This document shows, in pieces, positions 10,194 to 20,897 of a DNA stretch of 21,970 bases. The stretch comes from a plasmid. Below the pieces are notes generated by a model. It did no database searches, was not told where the DNA came from, and saw only the letters and a program-made list of their open reading frames with translations. The DNA lies in sequence record NZ_CP014059.2, one strand, 5' to 3'. How positions within the stretch are numbered: position 1 is the first letter of the stretch; the number at the start of each line of letters is the position of its first letter. The translations under genes were made by a program, and so were the position numbers.

Positions 10194-10206
10194 TTTAGCC
10201 GCTAAA
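10194..10206. promoter_or_regulatory. KorB operator (OB) TTTAGCCGCTAAA
   Basis: Exact consensus. It overlaps the resolvase stop codon and lies 78 bp upstream of the parA start. Confidence 0.8.
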
Positions 10207-11107
10207 GTTTGCGCCGCCGCGCCCGCTCGGCGTCTGCCAGGTCGCCGGGCCACGTCGCCAGCTCGTCATCGGTGAGGGCCGCCAGGATTTGCGGCAGGTT
10301 TTGGGTTCGGTACGGGGGCATCGGCAGATCGGCGACTGGGCCTTCATCGTCCAGAAAAGCCGGCTCGGGCAGCTCGGCCGCGCCCTGCTCCACGTCGGCC
10401 GCCGCGCCGGCGTCGGCCTCGGTCAATGCGTCCTCCACGAAAGCGCCATGCCTGGCCGCCTCGGCCCGGCTCATGTCACGGCTGGCCCAAATCCGTTTGA
10501 CCTGGGCCACGCTGCACCCGGCCAGCTTGGCAGTCTCCGCGATGCTCTGGCCGATGCTGCGCAACGCGATCACCTGGGCGCGCAGCTTCGGATCGGCCCG
10601 CCGGCCCTTGTAGCGGCCGTCCCGCTTCGCCAGCTCGATGCCCTGGCGCTGCCGCTCGCGCCTGTCCTCGTAGTCGTCGCGGGCCATCTGTAGGGCCAGC
10701 TTCAAAAGCATGTCCTGGACGGATTCCAGGACGATCTTGGCGACGCCCTGGGCCTCGGCCGCCAGGTCGGATAGATCGACCACGCCAGGGACGGCCAGGC
10801 GCGCACCCTTGGCCCGGATCGAGGCCACCAGGCGCTCGGCCTCGGGCAAGGGTAGGCGGCTGATGCGGTCGATCTTCTCGGCAATGACCACCTCGCCCGG
10901 TTGCAGGTCGGCCACCATGCGCAGCAGCTCGGGCCGGTCAGCGCGTGCGCCGCTGGCTTTCTCGCGGTAGATGCCGGCGACGTAGTACCCGGCGGCCTTC
11001 GCGGCCGTGATGATCCCTTCCTGGCGTTCAAGGTCTTGCGCGTCGGTGCTGACGCGCAGATAGACCCGCGCCACCATCGGCGCGGCTGCTGGCTTCGTCC
11101 TGCTCAT
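10202..11107 (-). CDS. Serine recombinase / resolvase (301 aa from ATG 11107, AAGGAG Shine-Dalgarno) with a long acidic C-terminal extension
   Basis: N-terminal catalytic motif YLRVSTDAQDLERQ. The HTH is GQSIAETAKLAGCSVAQVKRIW. It is divergent from the TA module across the res region, like the RK2 par/mrs layout. Confidence 0.85.
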   Translation of the reverse strand: MSRTKPAAAPMVARVYLRVSTDAQDLERQEGIITAAKAAGYYVAGIYREKASGARADRPELLRMVADLQPGEVVIAEKIDRISRLPLPEAERLVASIRAKGARLAVPGVVDLSDLAAEAQGVAKIVLESVQDMLLKLALQMARDDYEDRRERQRQGIELAKRDGRYKGRRADPKLRAQVIALRSIGQSIAETAKLAGCSVAQVKRIWASRDMSRAEAARHGAFVEDALTEADAGAAADVEQGAAELPEPAFLDDEGPVADLPMPPYRTQNLPQILAALTDDELATWPGDLADAERARRRKL

Positions 11108-11125
11108 TCTGGCTCCTTTGGGCAT

Positions 11126-11181: not shown

Positions 11182-11337
11182 GTGTCGTTTTCAGAAGACG
11201 GCTGCACTGAACGTCAGAAGCCGACTGCACTATAGCAGCGGAGGGGTTGGATCCATCAGGCAACGACGGGCTGCTGCCGGCCAAAAGCGGTCTCTGGTCC
11301 CCCGTGTCCGGTCTTGACGACGAGGCACCGTAGTAGT

Positions 11338-12225
11338 TTAGAACCGGAGGGTTTCGCCATCCTCGGGAATCAGCACCCGTTGCTCAATTTTATGGTCTTG
11401 CACAAACTCACGCAGGGCCTTGCGGGTGAGTGACATGTGGTTCACCGCATCCATGTGCACGGCCACGATGGCCGCATGGGGCGCTGCCTTGGTGGCCTGG
11501 AGTGTGTCCTGCTTGCCCATGATGATGGGATGCTCCTCAAAGCCACTCACGAGCGCGCTCCCTGTGTTGAGGATCACCACGTCGGGCTTGTGCAGCTTCA
11601 GTGCCTGATCCACTTCCGGACGCCACACCGTGTCCCCCGCCACGTAGACCGTCTTTGCCTGCGGCGCCGCAAACACGACCCCCATGACCGGGCCCATGAA
11701 CGCCGCACGCGCGGGGTCGGCAAACCACAAATCCGTGCCGTGCTGACCGCCGGTCCTGCTCAGCTTCACACCCTTGAAGGTGGTGGAGCCGGTGAGCACG
11801 CGGACGTCCTGGAAGCCTTGGCTGCGAATGAGCTTGGCATCCGCTTCGTTCTGCGTGAAGACCGGCAGGCTCTTGGGGATCGCCTTTTGAGCGGCCTCAT
11901 CCCAATGGTCTGTATGGGTGTGGGTCACGACCACTGCTTCCACGCTGTCCAGCACATCCTTCACTGAAAAGGGCAGCGCGACCAAGGGGTTTCTCAGTTC
12001 GCTGCGGTAAGTGCCCGGGAAGCCGGGGAACGCCCCTTGGTCCGACAGCATCGGGTCGACCAGGAAGGTCGTGCCAGCAAAGTCGATCTTCACCGTGGCG
12101 TTACGGATCTGCTGCACTTTGACCGAGGTGCCGGTGACGGTTGCCGGTGCAGACCAGGCGGTTGCCGCAAAGGCGCCCAGCGACAGCGAGACCAGCAGGG
12201 GAGTGAAAGCTTTCATCGAGAACAT
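11338..12225 (-). CDS. Secreted MBL-fold metallo-hydrolase (start ATG 12225 or 12216)
   Basis: HxHxDH motif VVTHTHTDHWD. Signal peptide MKAFTPLLVSLSLGAFAATAWSA. Confidence 0.7.
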   Translation of the reverse strand: MFSMKAFTPLLVSLSLGAFAATAWSAPATVTGTSVKVQQIRNATVKIDFAGTTFLVDPMLSDQGAFPGFPGTYRSELRNPLVALPFSVKDVLDSVEAVVVTHTHTDHWDEAAQKAIPKSLPVFTQNEADAKLIRSQGFQDVRVLTGSTTFKGVKLSRTGGQHGTDLWFADPARAAFMGPVMGVVFAAPQAKTVYVAGDTVWRPEVDQALKLHKPDVVILNTGSALVSGFEEHPIIMGKQDTLQATKAAPHAAIVAVHMDAVNHMSLTRKALREFVQDHKIEQRVLIPEDGETLRF

Positions 12226-12285
12226 GGGGGACACCCGCGTTGAGTTGAAGAGGCCTCCATGGTCGTGTCTCTCGCCCCTTTGTAG

Positions 12286-12306
12286 AATTGACCCAAGCGT
12301 CAATAT
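12286..12306. promoter_or_regulatory. Inverted repeat ATTGAC-N6-GTCAAT in the divergent MBL / GlxA intergenic region; putative operator
   Basis: Perfect 6-bp arms at 12287-12292 and 12299-12304, between divergent starts 12225 and 12341. Confidence 0.35.
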
Positions 12307-12340
12307 TCGAAAGAATTGGGCCACTTCACCCAGGAGCTTC

Positions 12341-13297
12341 ATGTCAAAGCGACTTCCCCTCGTGGCCCTCGTGAGCTACCCGCACTTCAGCCCGTTTCAC
12401 TTTGGCGTGCCGTTCTTGATCTTCAGTGCGCAGTTGCCCGAGCAGGCGCTGTTCGATCTGAAGATCGTCACGCCAGGCGGCACCGCGCTGGCGGCCGAGC
12501 GGGCCTTGTTCGTCCAACCCGATGGCGGGCTGGAGTTGCTGGCCAAGGCTGACATCGTCGTGATCCCCGGTTGGCATGATCTGGCCGAGCGTCCTGAGCC
12601 CGAGCTGATAGCCGCCTTGCGCCAGGCCCGCCAGCGGGGTGCCCATGTGGTGGGGCTGTGCTACGGCGCGTATGTCCTCGCCTATGCGGGCTTGCTGGAT
12701 GGCAAACGCGCATCCACACACTGGATGGCGGAGCAGGATTTCAAGCTGCGCTTTCCGCAAGTGCAACTGGACATGAATGCGCTGTATGTCGATGACGATG
12801 GCCTGATCACATCGGCGGGAACAGGGGCGGGCCTGGACTGCTGCCTCTACATCGTGCGCAAGTTCTACGGCCAGAAAACGGCCAACAAAGTCGCCCGGAT
12901 GATGGTGGTGCCGCCTCACCGCGAAGGAGGACAGGCTCAGTTCATTGAACAGCCGCTTGCCCCTTCCACGCAAGATGCCAGGATCAATCAGTTGCTGGAC
13001 CATTTGCGCCAGCACCTGAACCAGGTCCACTCGGTCGATGCGCTGGCCCAACGCGCCGCCATGAGCCGGCGCACGTTCACGCGCCACTTCAGCAAGGCGA
13101 CCGGCATGTCGTTGGGAGACTGGCTCATCAACGAACGCCTGCAGCGGACCCGAGAGCTGCTGGAAAGCACCACCTTGCCGGTGGAAGCCATCTCTGACCT
13201 GGTCGGATTTCAGAACCCGACCTCGCTGCGTCAGCACTTCAAGCGCAGAAACCAGGTCAGTCCCAGTGAATGGCGAAGAACCTTTGGGCGCGCGTGA
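12341..13297 (+). CDS. GlxA/FtrA-type transcriptional regulator: DJ-1/PfpI (class I glutamine amidotransferase-like) domain plus C-terminal AraC HTH (318 aa)
   Basis: AGGAG Shine-Dalgarno 5 nt upstream of ATG 12341. Nucleophile elbow VGLCYGAY. C-terminal AraC-type HTH. The long upstream ORF extension (from 12011) is rejected. Confidence 0.75.
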   Translation: MSKRLPLVALVSYPHFSPFHFGVPFLIFSAQLPEQALFDLKIVTPGGTALAAERALFVQPDGGLELLAKADIVVIPGWHDLAERPEPELIAALRQARQRGAHVVGLCYGAYVLAYAGLLDGKRASTHWMAEQDFKLRFPQVQLDMNALYVDDDGLITSAGTGAGLDCCLYIVRKFYGQKTANKVARMMVVPPHREGGQAQFIEQPLAPSTQDARINQLLDHLRQHLNQVHSVDALAQRAAMSRRTFTRHFSKATGMSLGDWLINERLQRTRELLESTTLPVEAISDLVGFQNPTSLRQHFKRRNQVSPSEWRRTFGRA

Positions 13298-13513
13298 GCT
13301 TTGTCTGCTCCGGGCGGGACAGCGTCATCCAGCTACCTGCGCCACTGACTCAGCCTTGTCCAGCCGGCCGCGCCGCACGAACAGACTGACCAGCCGTTGA
13401 CGGATCGCCACCTGGAGTTCCGCCAGTTGTTCCGGCGTGATGCGAATTTCACCCGCTCGACGAGCGCAACACCGGCGCCGCCTACGCCAAGAACCGGCGA
13501 ATCGAACTCAAAC

Positions 13514-14368
13514 TCACGAACCGCTGAGCGCCGCGTCACCGCGCTGCTGCGCCAGCCAGTCGCGCGGGGCGCAGCCCATGCGCACGCGGAAGGCGCGCGC
13601 CAGAGCGTTCGGGCTGCCGTAGCCGACGCGGTCGGCCACCACCGCCACCGGCCGCCCCTGCTTGAGCAGGGTGCAACTGACGTTCATCCGCCAGTCGGCC
13701 AGATAGTCGCCCGGCGTGACGCCCACCGCGTCCTTGAACGCGGCGGCGAAGCGCGCGCGTGACATGCCCGCCTTCGCCGCCAGCGCCTCGAGCGACCACG
13801 CGGTCTGCGGCGCATCGTGCATGGCGGTTATGGCGCGCGCGAGTTTCGGGTCGGCCAGGCCCGCCAGCAGTCCGGTGGCGCCAAGCCGCCCATCCATCAG
13901 ATAACGCAGCAACTGGATCAGTAGCAACTCGCACAAGCGGTCGATGGCGGCCTGCCGACCGCACTGGTCGCGCTCGGCTTCGGCAAACAGCAACTCTAGC
14001 GTCGGCCCGAGGCCGGGCAAGTCCGCCAACGGAATCAGCAGCATCGACGGCAAGGCCATGGCCAACGGATTGCCCGTCGAAGCGCCCAGGTCGACCTCCG
14101 CACACAACTGCTCAGCGGTATCGCCGGGGGCGGCGACAAAACGATGCGACGCCACGCGCGGATAAAACAGCAGGCTCGGCTCGGTAACCAGCAGATCTTC
14201 ATGCACGGGCGAACGCGCCGTAATCGGGCCGCGCCGCACCAGATGGATATAGCCATGCGGCGCCGCGTAATGATGCTGCCCACAGAAGGCGCCGCTGTGA
14301 AAAACGCGCGCCGAAAGCGAGTAGTGCCGGAGCAAGCCGGCCAGTCGATCCGCCATTCCACTCTCCAT
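13514..14368 (-). CDS. AraC-family transcriptional regulator (N-terminal cupin-like domain plus C-terminal HTH); start 14368 or 14356
   Basis: C-terminal AraC HTH signature ..ARAFRVRMGCAPRDW... It is divergent from the AhpD-like / cyt P460 operon. Confidence 0.75.
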   Translation of the reverse strand: MESGMADRLAGLLRHYSLSARVFHSGAFCGQHHYAAPHGYIHLVRRGPITARSPVHEDLLVTEPSLLFYPRVASHRFVAAPGDTAEQLCAEVDLGASTGNPLAMALPSMLLIPLADLPGLGPTLELLFAEAERDQCGRQAAIDRLCELLLIQLLRYLMDGRLGATGLLAGLADPKLARAITAMHDAPQTAWSLEALAAKAGMSRARFAAAFKDAVGVTPGDYLADWRMNVSCTLLKQGRPVAVVADRVGYGSPNALARAFRVRMGCAPRDWLAQQRGDAALSGS

Positions 14369-14473
14369 ATAAGACGATAGGTTACGTATTTGATACTTTA
14401 CGTGCCATATCGTACCAAACAAAGGGCGATCATGCCCACGTGCTCTTGCACCTCACCCACTACGGAGATAGAC

Positions 14474-15007
14474 ATGACCCAAATCGCCCCCCTGACCATC
14501 GACACCGCTGACGCCGCTACCGCTGCCACACTCAAGGCCGTCAAAGCCAAGCTTGGCATGGTGCCGAACCTGTTCGCCACGCTGGCCCACGCGCCGGCGG
14601 CGCTCAATGGCTACCTCGGCTTGTCCGAAACGCTGGGCACCGGCCGCCTGAATGCCTCCCAGCGCGAGATCGTTGCGCTCGCTGCCGCTCAAGCCAATCG
14701 CTGCCAGTATTGCCTGAGCGCACACACCCTGATCGGCAAAGGTGCCGGACTGTCGGCAGAGGCCATCGCCGCGGCCCGCACCGGCCAGGCGGCCAACGCA
14801 CTTGACGATGCAATCGCCGGCTTTGCCCGCGCGCTGGTCGAGCAACGCGGCGTGGTGTCGGCCGACGCCATGGCCAACTACCGCCGCGCGGGGCTCGACG
14901 ACGGCCTGATACTGGAAGTGATCGCCAACGTCGCGCTGAACACGCTCACCAACTACACCAACCACATCGCCGACCCCACGGTGGATTTCCCCGTGGTCGC
15001 CGTCTGA
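14474..15007 (+). CDS. Carboxymuconolactone decarboxylase (CMD) / AhpD-like family protein (177 aa)
   Basis: GGAG Shine-Dalgarno 7 nt upstream of the ATG. CxxC..H core motif RCQYCLSAHT typical of AhpD/CMD. Confidence 0.7.
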   Translation: MTQIAPLTIDTADAATAATLKAVKAKLGMVPNLFATLAHAPAALNGYLGLSETLGTGRLNASQREIVALAAAQANRCQYCLSAHTLIGKGAGLSAEAIAAARTGQAANALDDAIAGFARALVEQRGVVSADAMANYRRAGLDDGLILEVIANVALNTLTNYTNHIADPTVDFPVVAV

Positions 15008-15034
15008 TCTCCATAGGCATATAAGGAGAACACG

Positions 15035-15583
15035 ATGAAAATCGCACTCACCGGCGCTCTGCTCGCCAGCGCCCTCGTCCTGCCACTGGCCGTCACGGCC
15101 GGCGACTTTTCGCCCTATGTGGACAGCCAGGGCGGCATCAGCCGCCCCACAGACTTCCGCACAAACTTCGTCCACCTGGGCTCATATGCGGTGTTGGACG
15201 AAAAATCCGCCTCTCGCGGCTTGCACGATGTGTACACCGAAAAGGCCTCGGCCGAGCACTACCGCAAGACCGGCAAGTTCTTGGACGGCGCCACGCTGGT
15301 GAAAGAGATCCGCAAGCTCGAAACCAGCGCCATGACCACTGGCAACCCTGTGGTCTAGGGTTCCGATGCGGCCGTGTGGTTCGTGATGGTCAAGGACGCC
15401 AAAGGCCGTTTCGCCAGCAACCCCTTGTGGGGCGACGGCTGGGGCTGGGCGCTGTTCAAGGCCGACGCCCCCGCCAAGAATGTCGCCGTCAGCTACGAAG
15501 CCGACTGCATGGGCTGCCATGTGCCGGCGGCCAAGACCGACCGCGTATTCATCCAGGGCTATCCGACACTGACCCAGCACTGA
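15035..15583 (+). pseudogene. Cytochrome P460 / c'-beta family hemoprotein interrupted by an in-frame TAG at 15356-15358
   Basis: AAGGAG Shine-Dalgarno. Signal peptide MKIALTGALLASALVLPLAVTA. The reading frame continues across the TAG into ..WFVMVKD... and the C-terminal heme motif CMGCH. Total length about 183 codons, typical for the family. Confidence 0.7.
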
Positions 15584-15656
15584 CTTGCTGCCGGGTTACG
15601 CTTCGCGCAGGATGGCACCTCCGTCCTGCGCGAGCCACCCTTTCCGGAAGCGCGCC

Positions 15657-16257
15657 ATGCCGACACTCGACGCCTTTCTGACCGACGTCCGCGCCTGCAC
15701 GCGCTGCGCACCGCATCTGCCACACGGCGTGCAGCCGGTCTTCCAGTTTCACCCGAGTGCGCCCATCCTCATCGCCGGCCAAGCACCGGGGGCCCGGGTC
15801 CATGCCTCAGGCGTGCCCTTCGACGACGCCAGCGGCGCGCGTCTGCGCGCCTGGCTGGGCGTGGACCGCGACACCTTCTACGACCCTACCCGCATCGCCA
15901 TTCTGCCCATGGGCTTCTGTTATCCGGGCACCGGCAAAAGCGGTGACCTGCCGCTACGCCCGGAGTGCGCCCCCCGCCTGGCGCGAAGCCTTCATGCAGC
16001 GTTTCGAGCGCCTGTCGCTGGTCATCGTGCTGGGCAGCTACGCCATGGACTACCACCTCGGTACTGGCAAGACGCCGCTCACCCGGGTGGTCGAAGCCTG
16101 GCGCGAGCACTGGCCGCAAGCGTTCCCCCTGCCTCACCCTAGCCCGCGCAACAATCGCTGGCTGGTGCGCAACCCCTGGTTCCAACAAGACGTGCTGCCC
16201 GCGCTGCAAGCACGCGTCCAGGCAGTCCTCACCGCCAACCCCAAGGAAACCCCATGA
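15657..16257 (+). pseudogene. Family-4-type uracil-DNA glycosylase-like gene with a +1 frameshift in a C6 run (15972-15977)
   Basis: Frame 3 gives MPTLDAFLTDVRACTRC..ILIAGQAPGARV..GFCYPGTGKSGDLPLRPECAP. Frame 1 continues AWREAFMQRFERLSLVIVLGSYA...LPHPSPRNNRWLV (HPSP motif). Deleting one C in the tgcgccccccgcctgg run restores a single protein of about 199 aa. Confidence 0.7.
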
Positions 16258-16372
16258 CCGACGACACCGCCGCCATTACCGAGCTGCTGCACAAGTACTA
16301 CGACACCCTGGCCTGGGCGAACGGAGACAGGCACCGGCTTTGGAGCGATGAACGACGGCTTCAGGTGCGGTA
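16254..16372 (+). pseudogene. Truncated SnoaL/NTF2-like fragment (39 codons)
   Basis: MTDDTAAITELLHKYYDTLAWANGD is the typical N-terminus of a SnoaL-like domain. ATGA overlaps the UDG stop. The ORF ends after 39 codons. Confidence 0.35.
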
Positions 16373-16440
16373 GCTGACGCCTGGGACCTCAATCACCGTA
16401 TGACCGGGTCGAAAGCGGTCCTTTCTCTGACAACATCGCC

Positions 16441-17325
16441 CTAGCCCGCACTCAACCCCCACAACACATCCAGCACATGTTGCGTAGGCCGCTCGACGTC
16501 CCCACCACGGTGGGCAATACCAAGTTGACGCCACAATAAGGGCTGTAATGGCCGCATGACGATCCTGGTATCGGGCAATGGCGTGGAGGCTTCATGCGGC
16601 AACAACGTCGCACCATAACCGGCCGCCACTAGGCTTTTGATCGCATCGTTGTAGTTCAGTTGAATACGCGGCGTGGGCTGCCGTCCATCACTGGCGAACC
16701 ACTCCGAGGTCAAGCGCGAAAGCCGAGTAGTTTTGTCATTCAGAATTAATGGCTGGGCGGCCAGCCAACCGGGGGTCACAACATCCGGGCATTCCCAGCG
16801 AGCCGGCAAGAAGGCCATGACCGGGTCCCGCCGCCATGGCTCGATCCGCAATTCCTTCACCGGGGTCTGTGGCAGCGCGACCAGACCGATCTCCAAAGAG
16901 CCCTCGGCAAGCTTCTTCAAAGTTTCCTGCGACGTGAGCACCGCGACCTGCACATCGATAGCGGGATGGCGTTGGCCCAACGTCTCCAAAGCTTGCGGCA
17001 TCAACTGTGCGATGGCCCCTGTGGAGGCACCCAGCCGCACACGCCCGGCCAAGCCCTGCACCTGACGCTCCACGTCCTCAAGCGCCTGCTCCGCATCCGC
17101 CAACAGGCGCCGCGCGCGCTCCACCAGCGTTTCTCCAATCGCCGAAGGCTGAATGCGCCCACGTGTGCGCGACAACAGCTTTCCGCCAACCCGCGACTCC
17201 AGGTCGGCAATATGCAAACTGACCGTGGGTGGCGCGAGGTGCAGCACACGGGCCGCCTCGGCAAACGAACCCAGGTCGGCAATGGCCACCAACGTGCGCA
17301 GACGGTCCAGGCTGATTTCGCGCAT
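16441..17325 (-). CDS. LysR-family transcriptional regulator (294 aa)
   Basis: N-terminal HTH LRTLVAIADLGSFAEAARVLHLAPPTVSLHIADLE and a C-terminal substrate-binding domain. Confidence 0.85.
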   Translation of the reverse strand: MREISLDRLRTLVAIADLGSFAEAARVLHLAPPTVSLHIADLESRVGGKLLSRTRGRIQPSAIGETLVERARRLLADAEQALEDVERQVQGLAGRVRLGASTGAIAQLMPQALETLGQRHPAIDVQVAVLTSQETLKKLAEGSLEIGLVALPQTPVKELRIEPWRRDPVMAFLPARWECPDVVTPGWLAAQPLILNDKTTRLSRLTSEWFASDGRQPTPRIQLNYNDAIKSLVAAGYGATLLPHEASTPLPDTRIVMRPLQPLLWRQLGIAHRGGDVERPTQHVLDVLWGLSAG

Positions 17326-17338
17326 GAGTCACTCCTTG

Positions 17339-17373
17339 TTCAGAAAAGCTGAATTTCATCGTTTAGAAATTCA
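17339..17373. promoter_or_regulatory. LysR-type T-N11-A box TTCAGAAAAGCTGAA (17339-17353), overlapping the palindrome TGAATTTC-N8-GAAATTCA (17350-17373)
   Basis: Immediately upstream of the LysR start (17325). Confidence 0.5.
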
Positions 17374-17420
17374 ACTTTTCCTATCTTAGCCCCTCACTGA
17401 AGATTGGAACTCCTGATTTC

Positions 17421-19148
17421 CTATGTCCGAGAGCATTCCATGGCAAGTCCTCTTATATTCATCGACGGCGACCACTCCTCGATCTGATCGAACGGTTTGG
17501 CCGGCGGCAGGTTGTCTGCCTGCGGGTCAGCCATGTCCACATCCGGCGGTATGGGCTTGGCCGGTGGCTCCGACGTCTTGAGGTGCTGGCGGCGATCAGC
17601 GTCGCGCCGCGCCTTGCGCGTGGCCTTCTGGGCGGTGGTCACGATCTCGCGCATCTGCCCGATCATGCGGAACAGCGCCGACTCGTCCACCTGCTCGCGC
17701 CCGAGCTGACGCAATTTGGCCAGCGCCTGGCGTTGTTCCCAGAGGGTGACGGCCGGATGGGACAAGGTGCGGTAGTGGATCTCCAGATAGTGCTGACCTT
17801 CCGGTTCCAGTACCCAGATGCGGCTGATGTCGCGCGGATCGCGCCGGATCAGGAAGGCGGGCAAGCGCTCGCGCCGGGCAATCCACGGCTTGAGGGCGTC
17901 GGCGTAGTAGTGGATGTGGTCGATGACAAAGCCGGTGCGGGTCAGGGTGCGGCGGATCACCGGCAGGAAATCGACCAAAAACGCGGTGGGGCGGGTAACG
18001 ACGGCCGGGACGCCAACGCGCTCCACGGCCTCGGCCCAGCGCGCGGCCGGCGGCTGGAGCAGGCCGTTGTGCACGGAGCCGTGATAGGTGCCTACCGCCA
18101 ACGCGAGCCAGCGCTCCAGCTCGCGCAGCGTCAGGGTGGCCATCTTCTCGGAATCGTACTCGCCGCGCTGGCCGGGATTGGAGAAGGTCGTCCCCGGTAA
18201 TTCGTCGTGGATCATCTGCATCGCCGTGCCGATGATCCGTTCCACGATGCCGCCGTAGTGCGGCTGGCCTGGTGGGCGATAGTCCAGCCGGATGCCATGC
18301 TGTTCGCAGCCACGGCGCAGCGCTTCGCTTTTGAACTCGGCCGCGTTGTCCAGATAGAGCAGCCTGGGCTTGCCGCTCATCGGCCAGTCCATTTCCACAT
18401 TCAGCCCTTCCAGCCAGGGCCGCTTGTCGCAGGCGGCATGCGCGAGGCATAGGCCGACCGAGACGGCGGACGGCGCTTCCAGCGTGACCACCATGCCGAG
18501 TACGCAGCGCGTGAACACGTCGATGGCGAGGGTCAAATATGGGCGGCCAATCGGTTGCCGGTCGCGCTCGTCGACCACGATCAGGTCGATGACGGTGTGG
18601 TCGATCTGCACCTGTTCCAGCGGCATGGTGACTTCTGGCGGAATGCCACCCGCGCCTTGCAAGGGACGGGCAGCGTCCTGCCCGCCCCGGCTGCGGGCTA
18701 TTTTCGCCGGGTGTAGTCCGGCAATCCGCTGGGCCACGGTGTTGCGCGCCGGCACCGGCAGCTTCTGGGTTTTGCACGCCTGCGCGACTTCGCGGTGGAA
18801 CGCCGCCAGGCTGCGTTTCTGCTTGGTCAGGAAGCGCTTTTGCAGCAGCTCGCGGATGATGCGCTCGACCGGTTCCGGCAAGCGCCCCTTGCCTTTGCCG
18901 CCGCCGGATCGGCCGGGCGTCAGGTCTGTTACCAGGCCAGTACCCTGCCGGGCGCGACGGATCAGGACATATACCTGTCGCCGGGACAGGCCCAGCGCTT
19001 GGGCTGCCTCATCGGCGGCTTCATGCCCGACCACCTCAAGCGCTGCCAGTGGCCCGATGATTTCCGTCCGGTGCCGGGCTTGCGCCCATGCCTCGTCGGG
19101 CAGGGTGGCCACGCCTTGCGCGGCAATCGGTGGAGTGTCTGATGTCAT
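17421..19148 (-). CDS. tniA: TniA (Tn402/Tn5053-family DDE transposase, TnsB/MuA-like), about 575 aa from ATG 19148
   Basis: MTSDTPPIAAQGVATLPDEAW...GLSRRQVYVLIRRARQG...QVQIDHTVIDLIVVD... is near-identical to Tn402/Tn5053 TniA. tniB, tniQ and tniR are absent downstream; the LysR gene follows directly. Confidence 0.92.
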   Translation of the reverse strand: MTSDTPPIAAQGVATLPDEAWAQARHRTEIIGPLAALEVVGHEAADEAAQALGLSRRQVYVLIRRARQGTGLVTDLTPGRSGGGKGKGRLPEPVERIIRELLQKRFLTKQKRSLAAFHREVAQACKTQKLPVPARNTVAQRIAGLHPAKIARSRGGQDAARPLQGAGGIPPEVTMPLEQVQIDHTVIDLIVVDERDRQPIGRPYLTLAIDVFTRCVLGMVVTLEAPSAVSVGLCLAHAACDKRPWLEGLNVEMDWPMSGKPRLLYLDNAAEFKSEALRRGCEQHGIRLDYRPPGQPHYGGIVERIIGTAMQMIHDELPGTTFSNPGQRGEYDSEKMATLTLRELERWLALAVGTYHGSVHNGLLQPPAARWAEAVERVGVPAVVTRPTAFLVDFLPVIRRTLTRTGFVIDHIHYYADALKPWIARRERLPAFLIRRDPRDISRIWVLEPEGQHYLEIHYRTLSHPAVTLWEQRQALAKLRQLGREQVDESALFRMIGQMREIVTTAQKATRKARRDADRRQHLKTSEPPAKPIPPDVDMADPQADNLPPAKPFDQIEEWSPSMNIRGLAMECSRT

Positions 19149-19376
19149 GCCCAAACCTCGCTTTGGTGCACACGAGTATTGAGCATAGTCGAGATTGGTG
19201 CAGACGACTCCTGATATTGGGCTGTCAGGAGCCGTATGCACACCAGGCGTTACATCCAGTCAGATGGTGCGGTCGTCTTCTGAAAACGACAATATGCGCC
19301 TAGCTCAAAACGCCAGCCTTAAAGAGCCTTTTCAAGACAGTTTCAGCGTGATGGACTTGGGGGCAGGGAAGGGCTA

Positions 19377-19413: not shown

Positions 19414-19686
19414 ATGGCAACGTCTCTCAAGATCGACGACACGCTGAAAGGTCGCGTCCAGCACCTCGCCAGCCAGCGCCGCCGCTCGCCCCACTGGATC
19501 ATGCTCGAAGCGATCCAGCAGTACGTCGAGCGCGAAGAAGCCCGCGAGAGCTTCAAGCAGGAAGCCTTGGCGTCCTGGGCGGCCTACAAGGAAACCGGCC
19601 GCCACCTGACCGGCCAGGAAGTTCGCACCTGGTTGAACACCTGGGGCACCAATGACGAAAGGGCGGTGCCTGAGTGCCACAAGTAA
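19414..19686 (+). CDS. parD: RHH (CopG-like) antitoxin of a ParE/RelE-type TA pair (90 aa)
   Basis: N-terminal RHH (SLKIDDTLKGRVQHLA). C-terminal ..TGRHLTGQEVRTWLNTWGTNDE.. is typical of ParE-partner antitoxins. It overlaps the toxin start. Confidence 0.7.
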   Translation: MATSLKIDDTLKGRVQHLASQRRRSPHWIMLEAIQQYVEREEARESFKQEALASWAAYKETGRHLTGQEVRTWLNTWGTNDERAVPECHK

Positions 19687-19967
19687 TCGTCACCGAAGGC
19701 GCGGCGGAAGGCTTGGAACGATGCCGGCGGTTCCTGGCCGTCAAGGCACCGGACGCCGCCAGGCGTGCCGGCCAGGCCATCGAGCGGCAATTCCTGCTGC
19801 TGGAGACGGCCCCGGACATTGGCCGGCCGTTCCCTGAAATGCCCGAGCTGCGCGAGCTGGTGATTGCCTTCGGGGATTCCGGCTATGTGGCCCTGTACCG
19901 CCACGAACCGGCCGACGATGCGGTGTATGTTCTGGCCTTCCGGCACCAGAAAGAGGCGGGCTACTGA
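19674..19967 (+). CDS. parE: ParE/RelE-superfamily toxin (97 aa)
   Basis: ParE-like pattern ..VALYRHEPADDAVYVLAFRHQKE... Translationally coupled to the antitoxin. It is divergent from the resolvase, as in the RK2 parDE arrangement. Confidence 0.75.
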   Translation: MPQVIVTEGAAEGLERCRRFLAVKAPDAARRAGQAIERQFLLLETAPDIGRPFPEMPELRELVIAFGDSGYVALYRHEPADDAVYVLAFRHQKEAGY

Positions 19968-20663: not shown

Positions 20664-20897
20664 CTACGCGGTGAGTGACTGCCGCACCGCGTCCAGGGCC
20701 TGGCGGAAGTCGTCCCGCGTAGCCTGGCCCGTCTCGGCCTGGTAGTACAGCACCATGAACATATTGGCGACGGCTTCCGCCATCGGCGAGAGCTGCCGCG
20801 CCGCCTCTTGGTCGATCCAGTCCAGGGCCGCGAGCTGTGCGGCCGCATGATGGACTGCCTGGGTTGCGATTGCATTGGTAGGATTCAAAGTTGCCAT
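20664..20897 (-). CDS. Hypothetical helical protein (77 aa)
   Basis: GAGGTGA Shine-Dalgarno upstream of the ATG. A terminator lies downstream. Confidence 0.5.
   Translation of the reverse strand: MATLNPTNAIATQAVHHAAAQLAALDWIDQEAARQLSPMAEAVANMFMVLYYQAETGQATRDDFRQALDAVRQSLTA

Follow-up and report, generated by a model that had tools for sequence, protein, structure and literature searches.

The locus analyzed here raises the question of why a gene resembling those for uracil-DNA glycosylase (UDG) should share a string with genes for an AraC-family regulator, an AhpD-like protein of the CMD family and a secreted cytochrome P460. The string lies at positions 13514-16257 of a 21,970-nucleotide stretch of plasmid DNA (sequence record NZ_CP014059.2), which in its full length is referred to as the window. 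A previous reading of its letters (hereafter, the original prediction) had proposed a nitrosative-stress and deamination-repair unit, now decayed. The results presented below favor, with a probability of about 0.6, the reading of the string as a decayed copy, spread by horizontal transfer, of a conserved module that would limit the damage done by reactive small-molecule oxidants.

Organization and decay of the gene string

Open reading frame (ORF) listing, direct reading of the sequence and profile searches upheld the architecture that had been proposed, a regulator divergent from three co-oriented genes. The AraC-family regulator gene, with Pfam Cupin_6 and HTH_18 domains, is encoded on the minus strand (13514-14368) and separated by a 105-bp divergent control region (14369-14473) from three plus-strand genes. 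These encode the CMD/AhpD-like protein (14474-15007; Pfam CMD), the cytochrome P460 (15035-15583; identified with Pfam) and the UDG-superfamily protein (15657-16257; identified with Pfam on the repaired protein). The CMD-P460 and P460-UDG gaps span 27 and 73 bp, respectively, and Shine-Dalgarno-like sequences are found upstream of the CMD, P460 and UDG genes alike. The start of a 39-codon ORF (16254-16373, plus strand) overlaps the UDG stop codon (ATGA), and the sole plus-strand terminator-like hairpin (16406-16421) is located 3' of both the string and this ORF, which may be the remnant of a longer gene. A 39-aa gene is also called at the equivalent spot 3' of three intact clusters (L003, L004 and L005).

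Alignment of the window with close relatives bore out the proposed decay and located it precisely. The CMD gene is apparently intact, with two window-specific nonsynonymous changes (14688 and 14975), and both downstream genes are broken, as had been predicted. The P460 gene is interrupted by an in-frame TAG (15356-15358), whereas all other copies in which this codon is readable have TGG (Trp108). The amber codon is specific to the window, and its origin may be a recent change of G to A or an error in sequencing; each of the four substitutions found only in the window is either nonsynonymous or nonsense. In L010, L011, L016, L039 and L045 the 5' end of P460 has lost 133 bp (15108-15240), and the P460 gene of L041 is in two pieces about 1.5 kb apart. 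Across the mobile copies, P460 has been knocked out independently several times.

The lesion in the UDG-like gene is of a different age. Its +1 frameshift stems from an extra C in the run at 15970-15975, which comprises six C in 13 of the 13 mobile-lineage copies where it could be read (drawn from Ralstonia, Pseudomonas and Acidovorax plasmids, one Enterobacter contig and ten genome contigs) and five C in four of four intact relatives (L003, L004, L005 and L028). Because the extra C is common to all readable mobile copies and is not found in the intact relatives, the frameshift is older than the spread of the element. In the mobile copies compared at a second site (window, L001 and L002), a Leu (CTA, 15954-15956) also replaces a Pro that is invariant across 24 aligned family members and, with both a frameshift and a Pro-to-Leu substitution, the UDG-like gene is a pseudogene.

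A protein of Enterobacter hormaechei (L016, 6001-6600; P0097, 199 aa), publicly annotated as 'Uracil DNA glycosylase superfamily', proved to be encoded by the frameshifted mobile copy, in which another frameshift compensates for the first. About 60 of its middle residues are out of frame, and the apparently intact ORF is therefore not a functional protein.

Conserved linkage in other genomes

The original prediction had pointed to Burkholderiales genomes for intact syntenic copies. The string proved to be cargo of a plasmid-borne transposon rather than part of a Burkholderiales chromosome, and the search itself was successful in other bacteria. Intact clusters, with the AraC regulator divergent from CMD-P460-UDG, were identified in Pseudomonas sp. 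(L003 and L028), Denitromonas iodatirespirans (L030), a Zoogloeaceae genome (L031), Methyloversatilis (L038, with an extra P460 paralog) and metagenome loci L004-L008, the latter at 76-97% identity. The Pseudomonas cluster resides on a 735-kb contig and encodes a UDG-like protein that is 94% identical. Strains with an intact cluster include Pseudomonas sp. EA_105y_Pfl2_R69, D. iodatirespirans IR-12 and Methyloversatilis sp. XJ19-13.

Beyond these clusters, the genes recur in rearranged form. In Rhodocyclaceae the regulator is divergent from P460-UDG, with no CMD gene, and four gammaproteobacterial genomes (L052, L059, L066 and L070) present a UDG-AraC pair divergent from P460 and a paralog, P460b, in the order P460b-P460. 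Actimicrobium harbors the regulator divergent from UDG-CMD-YHS, with no P460, while in a verrucomicrobial Limisphaerales genome a string comprising an extracytoplasmic function (ECF) sigma factor, UDG, YHS and CMD is divergent from P460-P460b. The UDG-like gene is found beside P460 or the regulator in at least five gene orders and two phyla, and under two regulator types. Dechloromonas, Azonexus and P. taeanensis present AraC-CMD-P460 only. The YHS-domain protein, which is secreted, is a further recurrent member of the module; it is encoded with both UDG and CMD in Actimicrobium and Limisphaerales, and with UDG on a short metagenome contig (gene coordinates L101 6345-6803, L091 3314-3775 and L173 2-298).

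A hidden Markov model survey of 65 P460-centred loci outside the mobile lineage detected P460b in 39, the Cupin_6-AraC regulator in 32, the methionine sulfoxide reductases MsrB and MsrA in 13 and 10, and the UDG-like and CMD genes in 11 each, raw counts that are inflated because loci of related organisms are not independent. Among 80 UDG-centred metagenome loci, seven contained any of AraC, CMD, P460b or YHS, and six the Cupin_6-AraC regulator. The chance background, as an estimate and not a computed control, is about 0.3% per 12-kb locus for a one-copy gene in a genome of roughly 4 Mb. The enrichment is large even when just five or six distinct arrangements are counted, and chance does not explain the linkage. 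Within this module, UDG is a facultative member.

The msrB and msrA genes (Pfam SelR and PMSR) are co-oriented and lie directly 3' of P460b-P460 in many Gammaproteobacteria and in a Trueperaceae genome; they follow P460 in L055, L061, L070, L071, L081 and L086, and lie directly 3' of UDG in L059 and L066. All-against-all clustering of neighboring ORFs revealed MsrA and MsrB as the only real recurrent neighbors, the remainder being mostly antisense shadow ORFs of GC-rich DNA. Literature searches for P460 together with UDG, hypochlorite or methionine sulfoxide reductase returned incidental co-mentions only, in line with the earlier remark that the combination was not known as a described operon.

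These data also bear on the possibility that the genes have no functional link, having simply co-travelled on mobile DNA, with the UDG-like gene an unrelated housekeeping repair gene. The window copy is indeed decaying transposon cargo, near-identical AraC-CMD-P460 modules without UDG exist (L024-L027) and most members of the UDG family are found in unrelated contexts. The absence of UDG from L024, L026 and L027, however, coincides with the end of homology right after P460, with a mer operon next in L024; in L025 and L029, homology is lost within or just before the UDG gene. The linkage, moreover, is present on large chromosomal contigs, in several gene orders, with or without CMD or P460 and under both regulator types, and in six metagenome loci picked irrespective of P460 the UDG gene directly adjoins the Cupin_6 regulator. 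Co-travel without function is thus disfavored, and we consider it very improbable. As to the original claim of a functional unit, the linkage sustains the unit, but not the specific nitrosative and deamination role assigned to it.

The regulator, its control region and the AhpD-like protein

The regulator matches Pfam Cupin_6 (E 1e-28) and HTH_18 (E 5e-19), and its top NCBIfam match is RclR (NF040475), with model positions 42-275 of 284 covered and a score of 93.8 bits against an equivalog cut-off of 400. Alignment with Escherichia coli RclR gave 25% identity over 239 residues (E 1e-24). The redox-active Cys residues of E. coli RclR are C21 and C89 in the numbering of Parker et al. 2013. The Cys aligned with Cys89 is conserved in all P460-linked regulator orthologs; an N-terminal Cys is also conserved in these orthologs, but is two positions off in the RclR alignment.

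The control region contains an imperfect palindrome (14374-14388 and 14399-14413), a direct repeat (GATAGGTTACGT and GATACTTTACGT) and a CACGTG box (about 14443-14448). A GATAC...GTA core and the CACGTG box are kept in most of eight aligned orthologous intergenic regions, ranging from Pseudomonas to Rhodocyclales, which makes the palindrome, the direct repeat and CACGTG candidate operator sites. A scan of the control region for sigma-70 consensus promoters found no site.

The identification of the first divergent gene as CMD/AhpD-like was corroborated by profile searches. Its product matches PF02627 (E 1e-13; 51.1 bits, cut-off 23) and the AhpD core model TIGR00778 (E 3e-12; 45.9 bits, cut-off 27.8), scores 80.8 bits against a cut-off of 81.8 for the peroxidase-related TIGR01926, and contains the C-x-x-C-x3-H motif as CQYCLSAH, that is, a CxxC with its downstream His. 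The top Protein Data Bank (PDB) matches are 3LVY and 6E8L (AhpD), and the protein is predicted to be an AhpD-like thiol-dependent reductase.

The combination of these two genes has a counterpart in Pseudomonas aeruginosa, where RclR activates the adjacent rclX, encoding an AhpD-like CxxC protein, and both protect against hypochlorous acid (HOCl) as well as hypothiocyanous acid (HOSCN); the rclR mutant shows no sensitivity to a nitric oxide (NO) donor (PMC7950407). Lpg0406, the template on which RclX was modelled, is not among the PDB matches of the window CMD protein.

The UDG-like protein belongs to a separate family

The repaired UDG-like protein matches Pfam UDG (E 2e-21), and its strongest structural assignment is to PDB 3IKB, a structure entered under the name 'uncharacterized conserved protein' (E 1.5e-43 across residues 21-192); the match to the family-4 structure 1UI0 is far weaker (E 5.5e-7). 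The 3IKB-like family comprises 240 representative clusters at E < 1e-30. An alignment of 24 sequences yielded its invariant motifs, GQAPG, PFDDxSG, PMxFCYPG, DLPP, HPSPRN and WF, which place the window protein in the family. With its fold fixed by the Pfam and 3IKB matches, the UDG-like protein is, by sequence, a member of this separate 3IKB-type family.

The original assignment to a family-4-type UDG had to be corrected. Residues C14, C17, C88 and C104 do align with the Cys residues of 1UI0, with conservation of at least 90% across the family, and these four are putative [4Fe-4S] ligands of the family-4 type. Membership of family 4 (UDGa) itself was rejected, with scores of 16.6 bits for TIGR00758 (cut-off 125.3) and 17.9 bits for NF040953 (cut-off 250), and where family 4 has motif A GE(A/G)PG (PMC10359453), the UDG-like protein reads GQAPG, its Gln and Ala being at least 90% conserved. 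Thermus UDGa uses N80, the motif-3 Asn, to read uracil and to position water (PMC9796141). In the phmmer alignment to 1UI0, this Asn aligns with the Pro of an invariant LPMGF in the UDG-like protein.

Other known families were considered and likewise set aside. The protein falls far short of the curated UdgX model. With family 3 (SMUG) the protein shares motif B, HPSPRN, but it reads GQAPG, without the Asn, where that family has motif A GMNPG. Finally, the DR0022-like 'acid UDG' family has a LEAP motif where the UDG-like protein has GQAPG.

The divergence of these motifs admits the alternative that the UDG-like protein is not a DNA-repair enzyme, but a Fe-S UDG-fold protein with another substrate, for instance a nucleotide or a small N-glycoside, or one that serves the oxidant response as a sensor or redox partner. 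The family lacks both the motif-3 Asn and a polar catalytic residue in motif A, and conserves a PMxFCYPGxGKSGDLPPR loop that is not known from the characterized UDG families. Its sole structure carries a noncommittal label, a literature search for 3IKB with uracil found nothing, and a search for the motifs GQAPG and HPSPRN returned only the definition of SMUG motif B. Against this, the protein retains superfamily hallmarks of work on DNA. Its HPSPRN is identical to the SMUG/family-3 motif B, the Phe of its GxPF motif, which may stack on a flipped base, matches that of 1UI0 in the alignment, and it shares an Fe-S Cys pattern with families 4 and 5. It also co-occurs with MsrA and MsrB, which repair macromolecules. 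A role outside DNA repair is, in our estimation, highly unlikely.

Cytochrome P460 and the nature of the oxidant

The prediction of a secreted cytochrome P460 was well founded. The protein matches PF16694 (E 5e-25; 88.6 bits, cut-off 27) and the PDB chains 6AMG and 2JE2 (E about 1e-13), has a signal-peptide-like N terminus and carries the CMGCH heme motif. Residues K90 (in a VKE motif), C158, C161 and H162 are invariant, as expected of a P460; K90 is presumably the heme cross-link Lys, as judged from the alignment and from the known cross-linking residue Lys70.

Cytochrome c'-beta proteins have Phe, Met or other residues at the site of the cross-linking Lys. Characterized P460 proteins bind NO and oxidize hydroxylamine (NH2OH) (PMC11928373). 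The oxidation of NH2OH requires a distal Glu, and the inactive P460 of strain AL212, which has Ala131 instead, regains activity only with A131E (PMC11928373). The distal Glu position of the Nitrosomonas europaea enzyme aligns with an invariant Trp115/Phe116 in the window's P460 type, which on this criterion is predicted not to be an NH2OH-oxidizing P460. The paralog P460b, absent from the window, carries Glu at the distal-base position, as does the N. europaea enzyme. With Trp/Phe at this site, the window's P460 is of the type with a hydrophobic distal pocket; what such variants do, a 2025 review notes, has still to be established (PMC11928373).

Tandem P460 pairs occur in most loci outside the mobile lineage, with P460b upstream and the window type (Trp/Phe) downstream; examples of the paralog are found at L038 5394-5984, L059 5360-5992 and L066 5345-5977. 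This pairing suggests a division of labor.

The chemistry of P460 is central to the main competing explanation, a nitrosative and hydroxylamine defense in which P460 would remove periplasmic NO or NH2OH and the UDG-like enzyme would excise deaminated bases or NH2OH adducts (uracil, hypoxanthine and xanthine from N2O3, and N4-hydroxycytosine from NH2OH). Beyond the known activities of P460 and the catalytic Glu retained in P460b, this explanation draws on the hosts, which are largely Rhodocyclales and Pseudomonas/Stutzerimonas, groups known as denitrifiers. It also draws on the proximity of the cluster to nirK-nirV-senC, about 2 kb away in the Pseudomonas chromosome (L003 1039-3891), and to nosZ, about 3 kb away in Rhodocyclaceae L012 (9676-11970), as well as on the classical role of UDG-superfamily enzymes in removing deamination products (PMC9796141).

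Other observations count against it. The window P460 has the invariant Trp115/Phe116 for the required Glu, and the UDG-like protein lacks the uracil-reading Asn of family 4. The adjacency to denitrification genes is confined to two lineages among all loci, and tblastn with NirK, NirV, SenC and NosZ matched only these two, so that a systematic linkage was rejected. Furthermore, the nearest characterized regulators respond to HOCl and HOSCN, and mutation of rclR does not make P. aeruginosa sensitive to an NO donor (PMC7950407). The linkage to MsrA and MsrB suggests methionine oxidation rather than deamination. A specifically nitrosative role is possible, but on balance we judge it rather unlikely.

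A proposed damage-control module for reactive oxidants

The preferred reading, a conserved damage-control module against reactive small-molecule oxidants, can be cast as a mechanism. The analysis establishes gene content, family assignments, lesions, mobile context and conserved linkage; how the unit is regulated, what triggers it and what its enzymes do are predictions. By analogy with RclR, the AraC regulator, with its Cupin_6 sensor and conserved Cys, would be activated by a thiol-reactive oxidant and would then switch on the divergent operon. In the cytoplasm, the AhpD-like CxxC protein would reduce either the oxidant or its products, while the secreted, Lys-cross-linked P460 would bind or convert a small nitrogen- or chlorine-containing oxidant in the periplasm, with NO, NH2OH, chloramine and peroxynitrite as candidate substrates. 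The Fe-S UDG-like protein would remove chemically damaged DNA bases. Other lineages complement this set with MsrA and MsrB for the repair of oxidized methionine, with the Glu-bearing P460 paralog or with the YHS protein. In the window, the module is an unmaintained passenger, its UDG gene frameshifted before the spread and its P460 gene knocked out later by the amber codon.

Several points weigh against this reading. In addition to the lack of independence among loci, the module is loose, since only about 17% of P460 loci carry UDG and about as many CMD, and most UDG-family genes reside in unrelated contexts. Since the regulator scores far under the RclR equivalog cut-off and shares only 25% identity with E. 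coli RclR, its ligand may differ from that of RclR. The CMD protein is probably not orthologous to RclX, because the RclX template is missing from its PDB matches. Lastly, a UDG-like family without the family-4 motif-3 Asn may not be a DNA glycosylase.

With regard to the trigger, the evidence does not decide between a chlorine or thiocyanate oxidant and a nitrogen oxidant. The former is suggested by the regulator analogy, the Msr linkage, the AhpD-like partner and host names that refer to chlorate and iodate respiration (chloritidismutans and iodatirespirans), and the latter by P460 chemistry, the Glu-bearing paralog, the hosts and the nirK or nosZ genes nearby in two lineages.

More tentatively, and with doubt outweighing confidence, we propose that 3IKB-type proteins are a further DNA glycosylase family, so far undescribed, for bases damaged by nitrogen or chlorine species (candidates being 5-chlorouracil, oxidized pyrimidines and N4-hydroxycytosine) and that P460 outside nitrifiers is the periplasmic part of a damage-control regulon, under RclR-type or ECF-sigma control, that also recruits MsrA/MsrB, AhpD-like and YHS proteins. 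If true, two orphan families, the 3IKB-type proteins and P460, would gain a physiological role outside nitrification. P460 is widespread outside nitrifiers, and both families are repeatedly tied to an RclR-type regulator, AhpD-like and Msr genes, which makes this a cheap, testable hypothesis. The window copy itself, a non-functional passenger on a promiscuous plasmid transposon, has low biological weight, but it can serve to track how the element spreads and to illustrate how cargo erodes.

Transposon and plasmid setting

The string is cargo of an 8.1-kb element (11183-19291) bounded by 25-bp inverted repeats of the Tn402/Tn5053 family and located beside plasmid resolvase and ParA genes. The left repeat (11183-11207, plus strand) is an exact match to TGTCGTTTTCAGAAGACGGCTGCAC and the right repeat (19267-19291, minus strand) has two mismatches, with zero matches expected by chance in either case; the resolvase gene (10202-11125; Pfam Resolvase) adjoins the left repeat. 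The cargo comprises a metallo-beta-lactamase (MBL)-fold hydrolase gene (11338-12228, minus strand), a gene for a DJ-1/PfpI-AraC (FtrA/GlxA-like) regulator (12344-13297, plus strand), the four-gene string, the 39-codon ORF and a LysR gene. The tniA transposase gene (17421-19148, minus strand; Pfam Mu-transpos_C and rve) is the sole transposition gene left, tniB, tniQ and tniR being absent from the window. The element is thus a defective Tn402/Tn5053-family derivative carrying the string as a passenger on an IncP-type plasmid.

The tniA gene is 99.9% identical to that of Acidovorax plasmid p3-T1. At its 3' junction with the cargo (17455-17474), the tniA stop codon TAG has become TCG, extending the ORF by 16 codons to 17421. 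The junction DNA corresponds to a LysR-argC intergenic region, as in plasmid NZ_CP156904, meeting the tniA 3' end, with a short shared sequence. The MBL-fold and DJ-1/PfpI-AraC genes form a 2-kb module (11289-13302) found in the window and in E. hormaechei L016; because it is absent from the near-identical copies L010, L011 and L002, the module is an indel within the transposon cargo.

The 3-kb segment with the string is present in at least 42 plasmid records at 95% identity or higher, 34 of them at 99% or higher, in hosts that include Pseudomonas, Ralstonia, Citrobacter, Escherichia, Xanthomonas and Burkholderia. The backbone of the window (trbJKL, traIJK, parA/parC and resolvase) is of the IncP-type MOBP kind, close to Acidovorax p3-T1 and Xanthomonas pLH3.4, and is 100% identical to p3-T1 over 85% of the window; p3-T1 has a full mer-tniRQBA module on the same backbone instead. 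The backbone is also related to small integron-bearing (class 1) plasmids of P. aeruginosa, among them the 24-kb NC_009739.1 (pMATVIM-7). Coordinates mapped from the p3-T1 annotation place a ptaRNA1-family type I toxin gene at 20664-20897 and a CopG/RelE-ParE pair at about 19414-19967.

Comparison with known systems

The element resembles the Tn402/Tn5053 transposons of pMATVIM-7-like IncP-type plasmids in its 25-bp inverted repeats, its tniA gene, its insertion by a resolvase gene and its mer-carrying relatives. It differs in lacking tniB, tniQ, tniR and mer, and in having as cargo the stress module together with the MBL, DJ-1/PfpI-AraC and LysR genes.

Among the encoded proteins, the P460 shares with those of N. 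europaea and Nitrosomonas sp. AL212 (2JE2 and 6AMG) its fold and family, the cross-linking Lys, the C-terminal CxxCH and apparent secretion. Unlike the N. europaea enzyme, it has Trp/Phe for the Glu, and in this it resembles the NH2OH-inactive AL212 protein (Ala131); its hosts, moreover, are not nitrifiers, and its gene is grouped with stress-repair genes. The UDG-like protein has the Pfam UDG fold in common with families 3 (SMUG), 4 (UDGa) and 5 (UDGb), HPSPRN with family 3 and the Fe-S Cys set with families 4 and 5, but its motif A, GQAPG, matches none of the described families. It also differs from 3IKB, which lacks the Cys set.

In the literature searched, we did not find the recruitment of P460, 3IKB-type UDG-like, MsrA/MsrB and YHS proteins to an RclR-type core. 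The closest regulatory systems are those of RclR itself. The E. coli RclR-rclABC reactive-chlorine regulon is similar in the architecture of the regulator, in the aligned Cys89 and in having the regulator divergent from its target operon, whereas its effectors, the RclA flavoprotein, RclB and RclC, are absent from the string in the window. In P. aeruginosa RclR-RclX (PA14_07340 and PA14_07355; Farrant et al. 2020, PMC7950407), an RclR-type AraC regulator likewise adjoins an AhpD-like/CMD CxxC gene, although rclX is a single-gene operon without P460, UDG-like or Msr genes. The regulator and AhpD-like pair of the window appears to mirror RclR-RclX in architecture, not by established orthology, and in this respect the core of the module is a known kind of unit.

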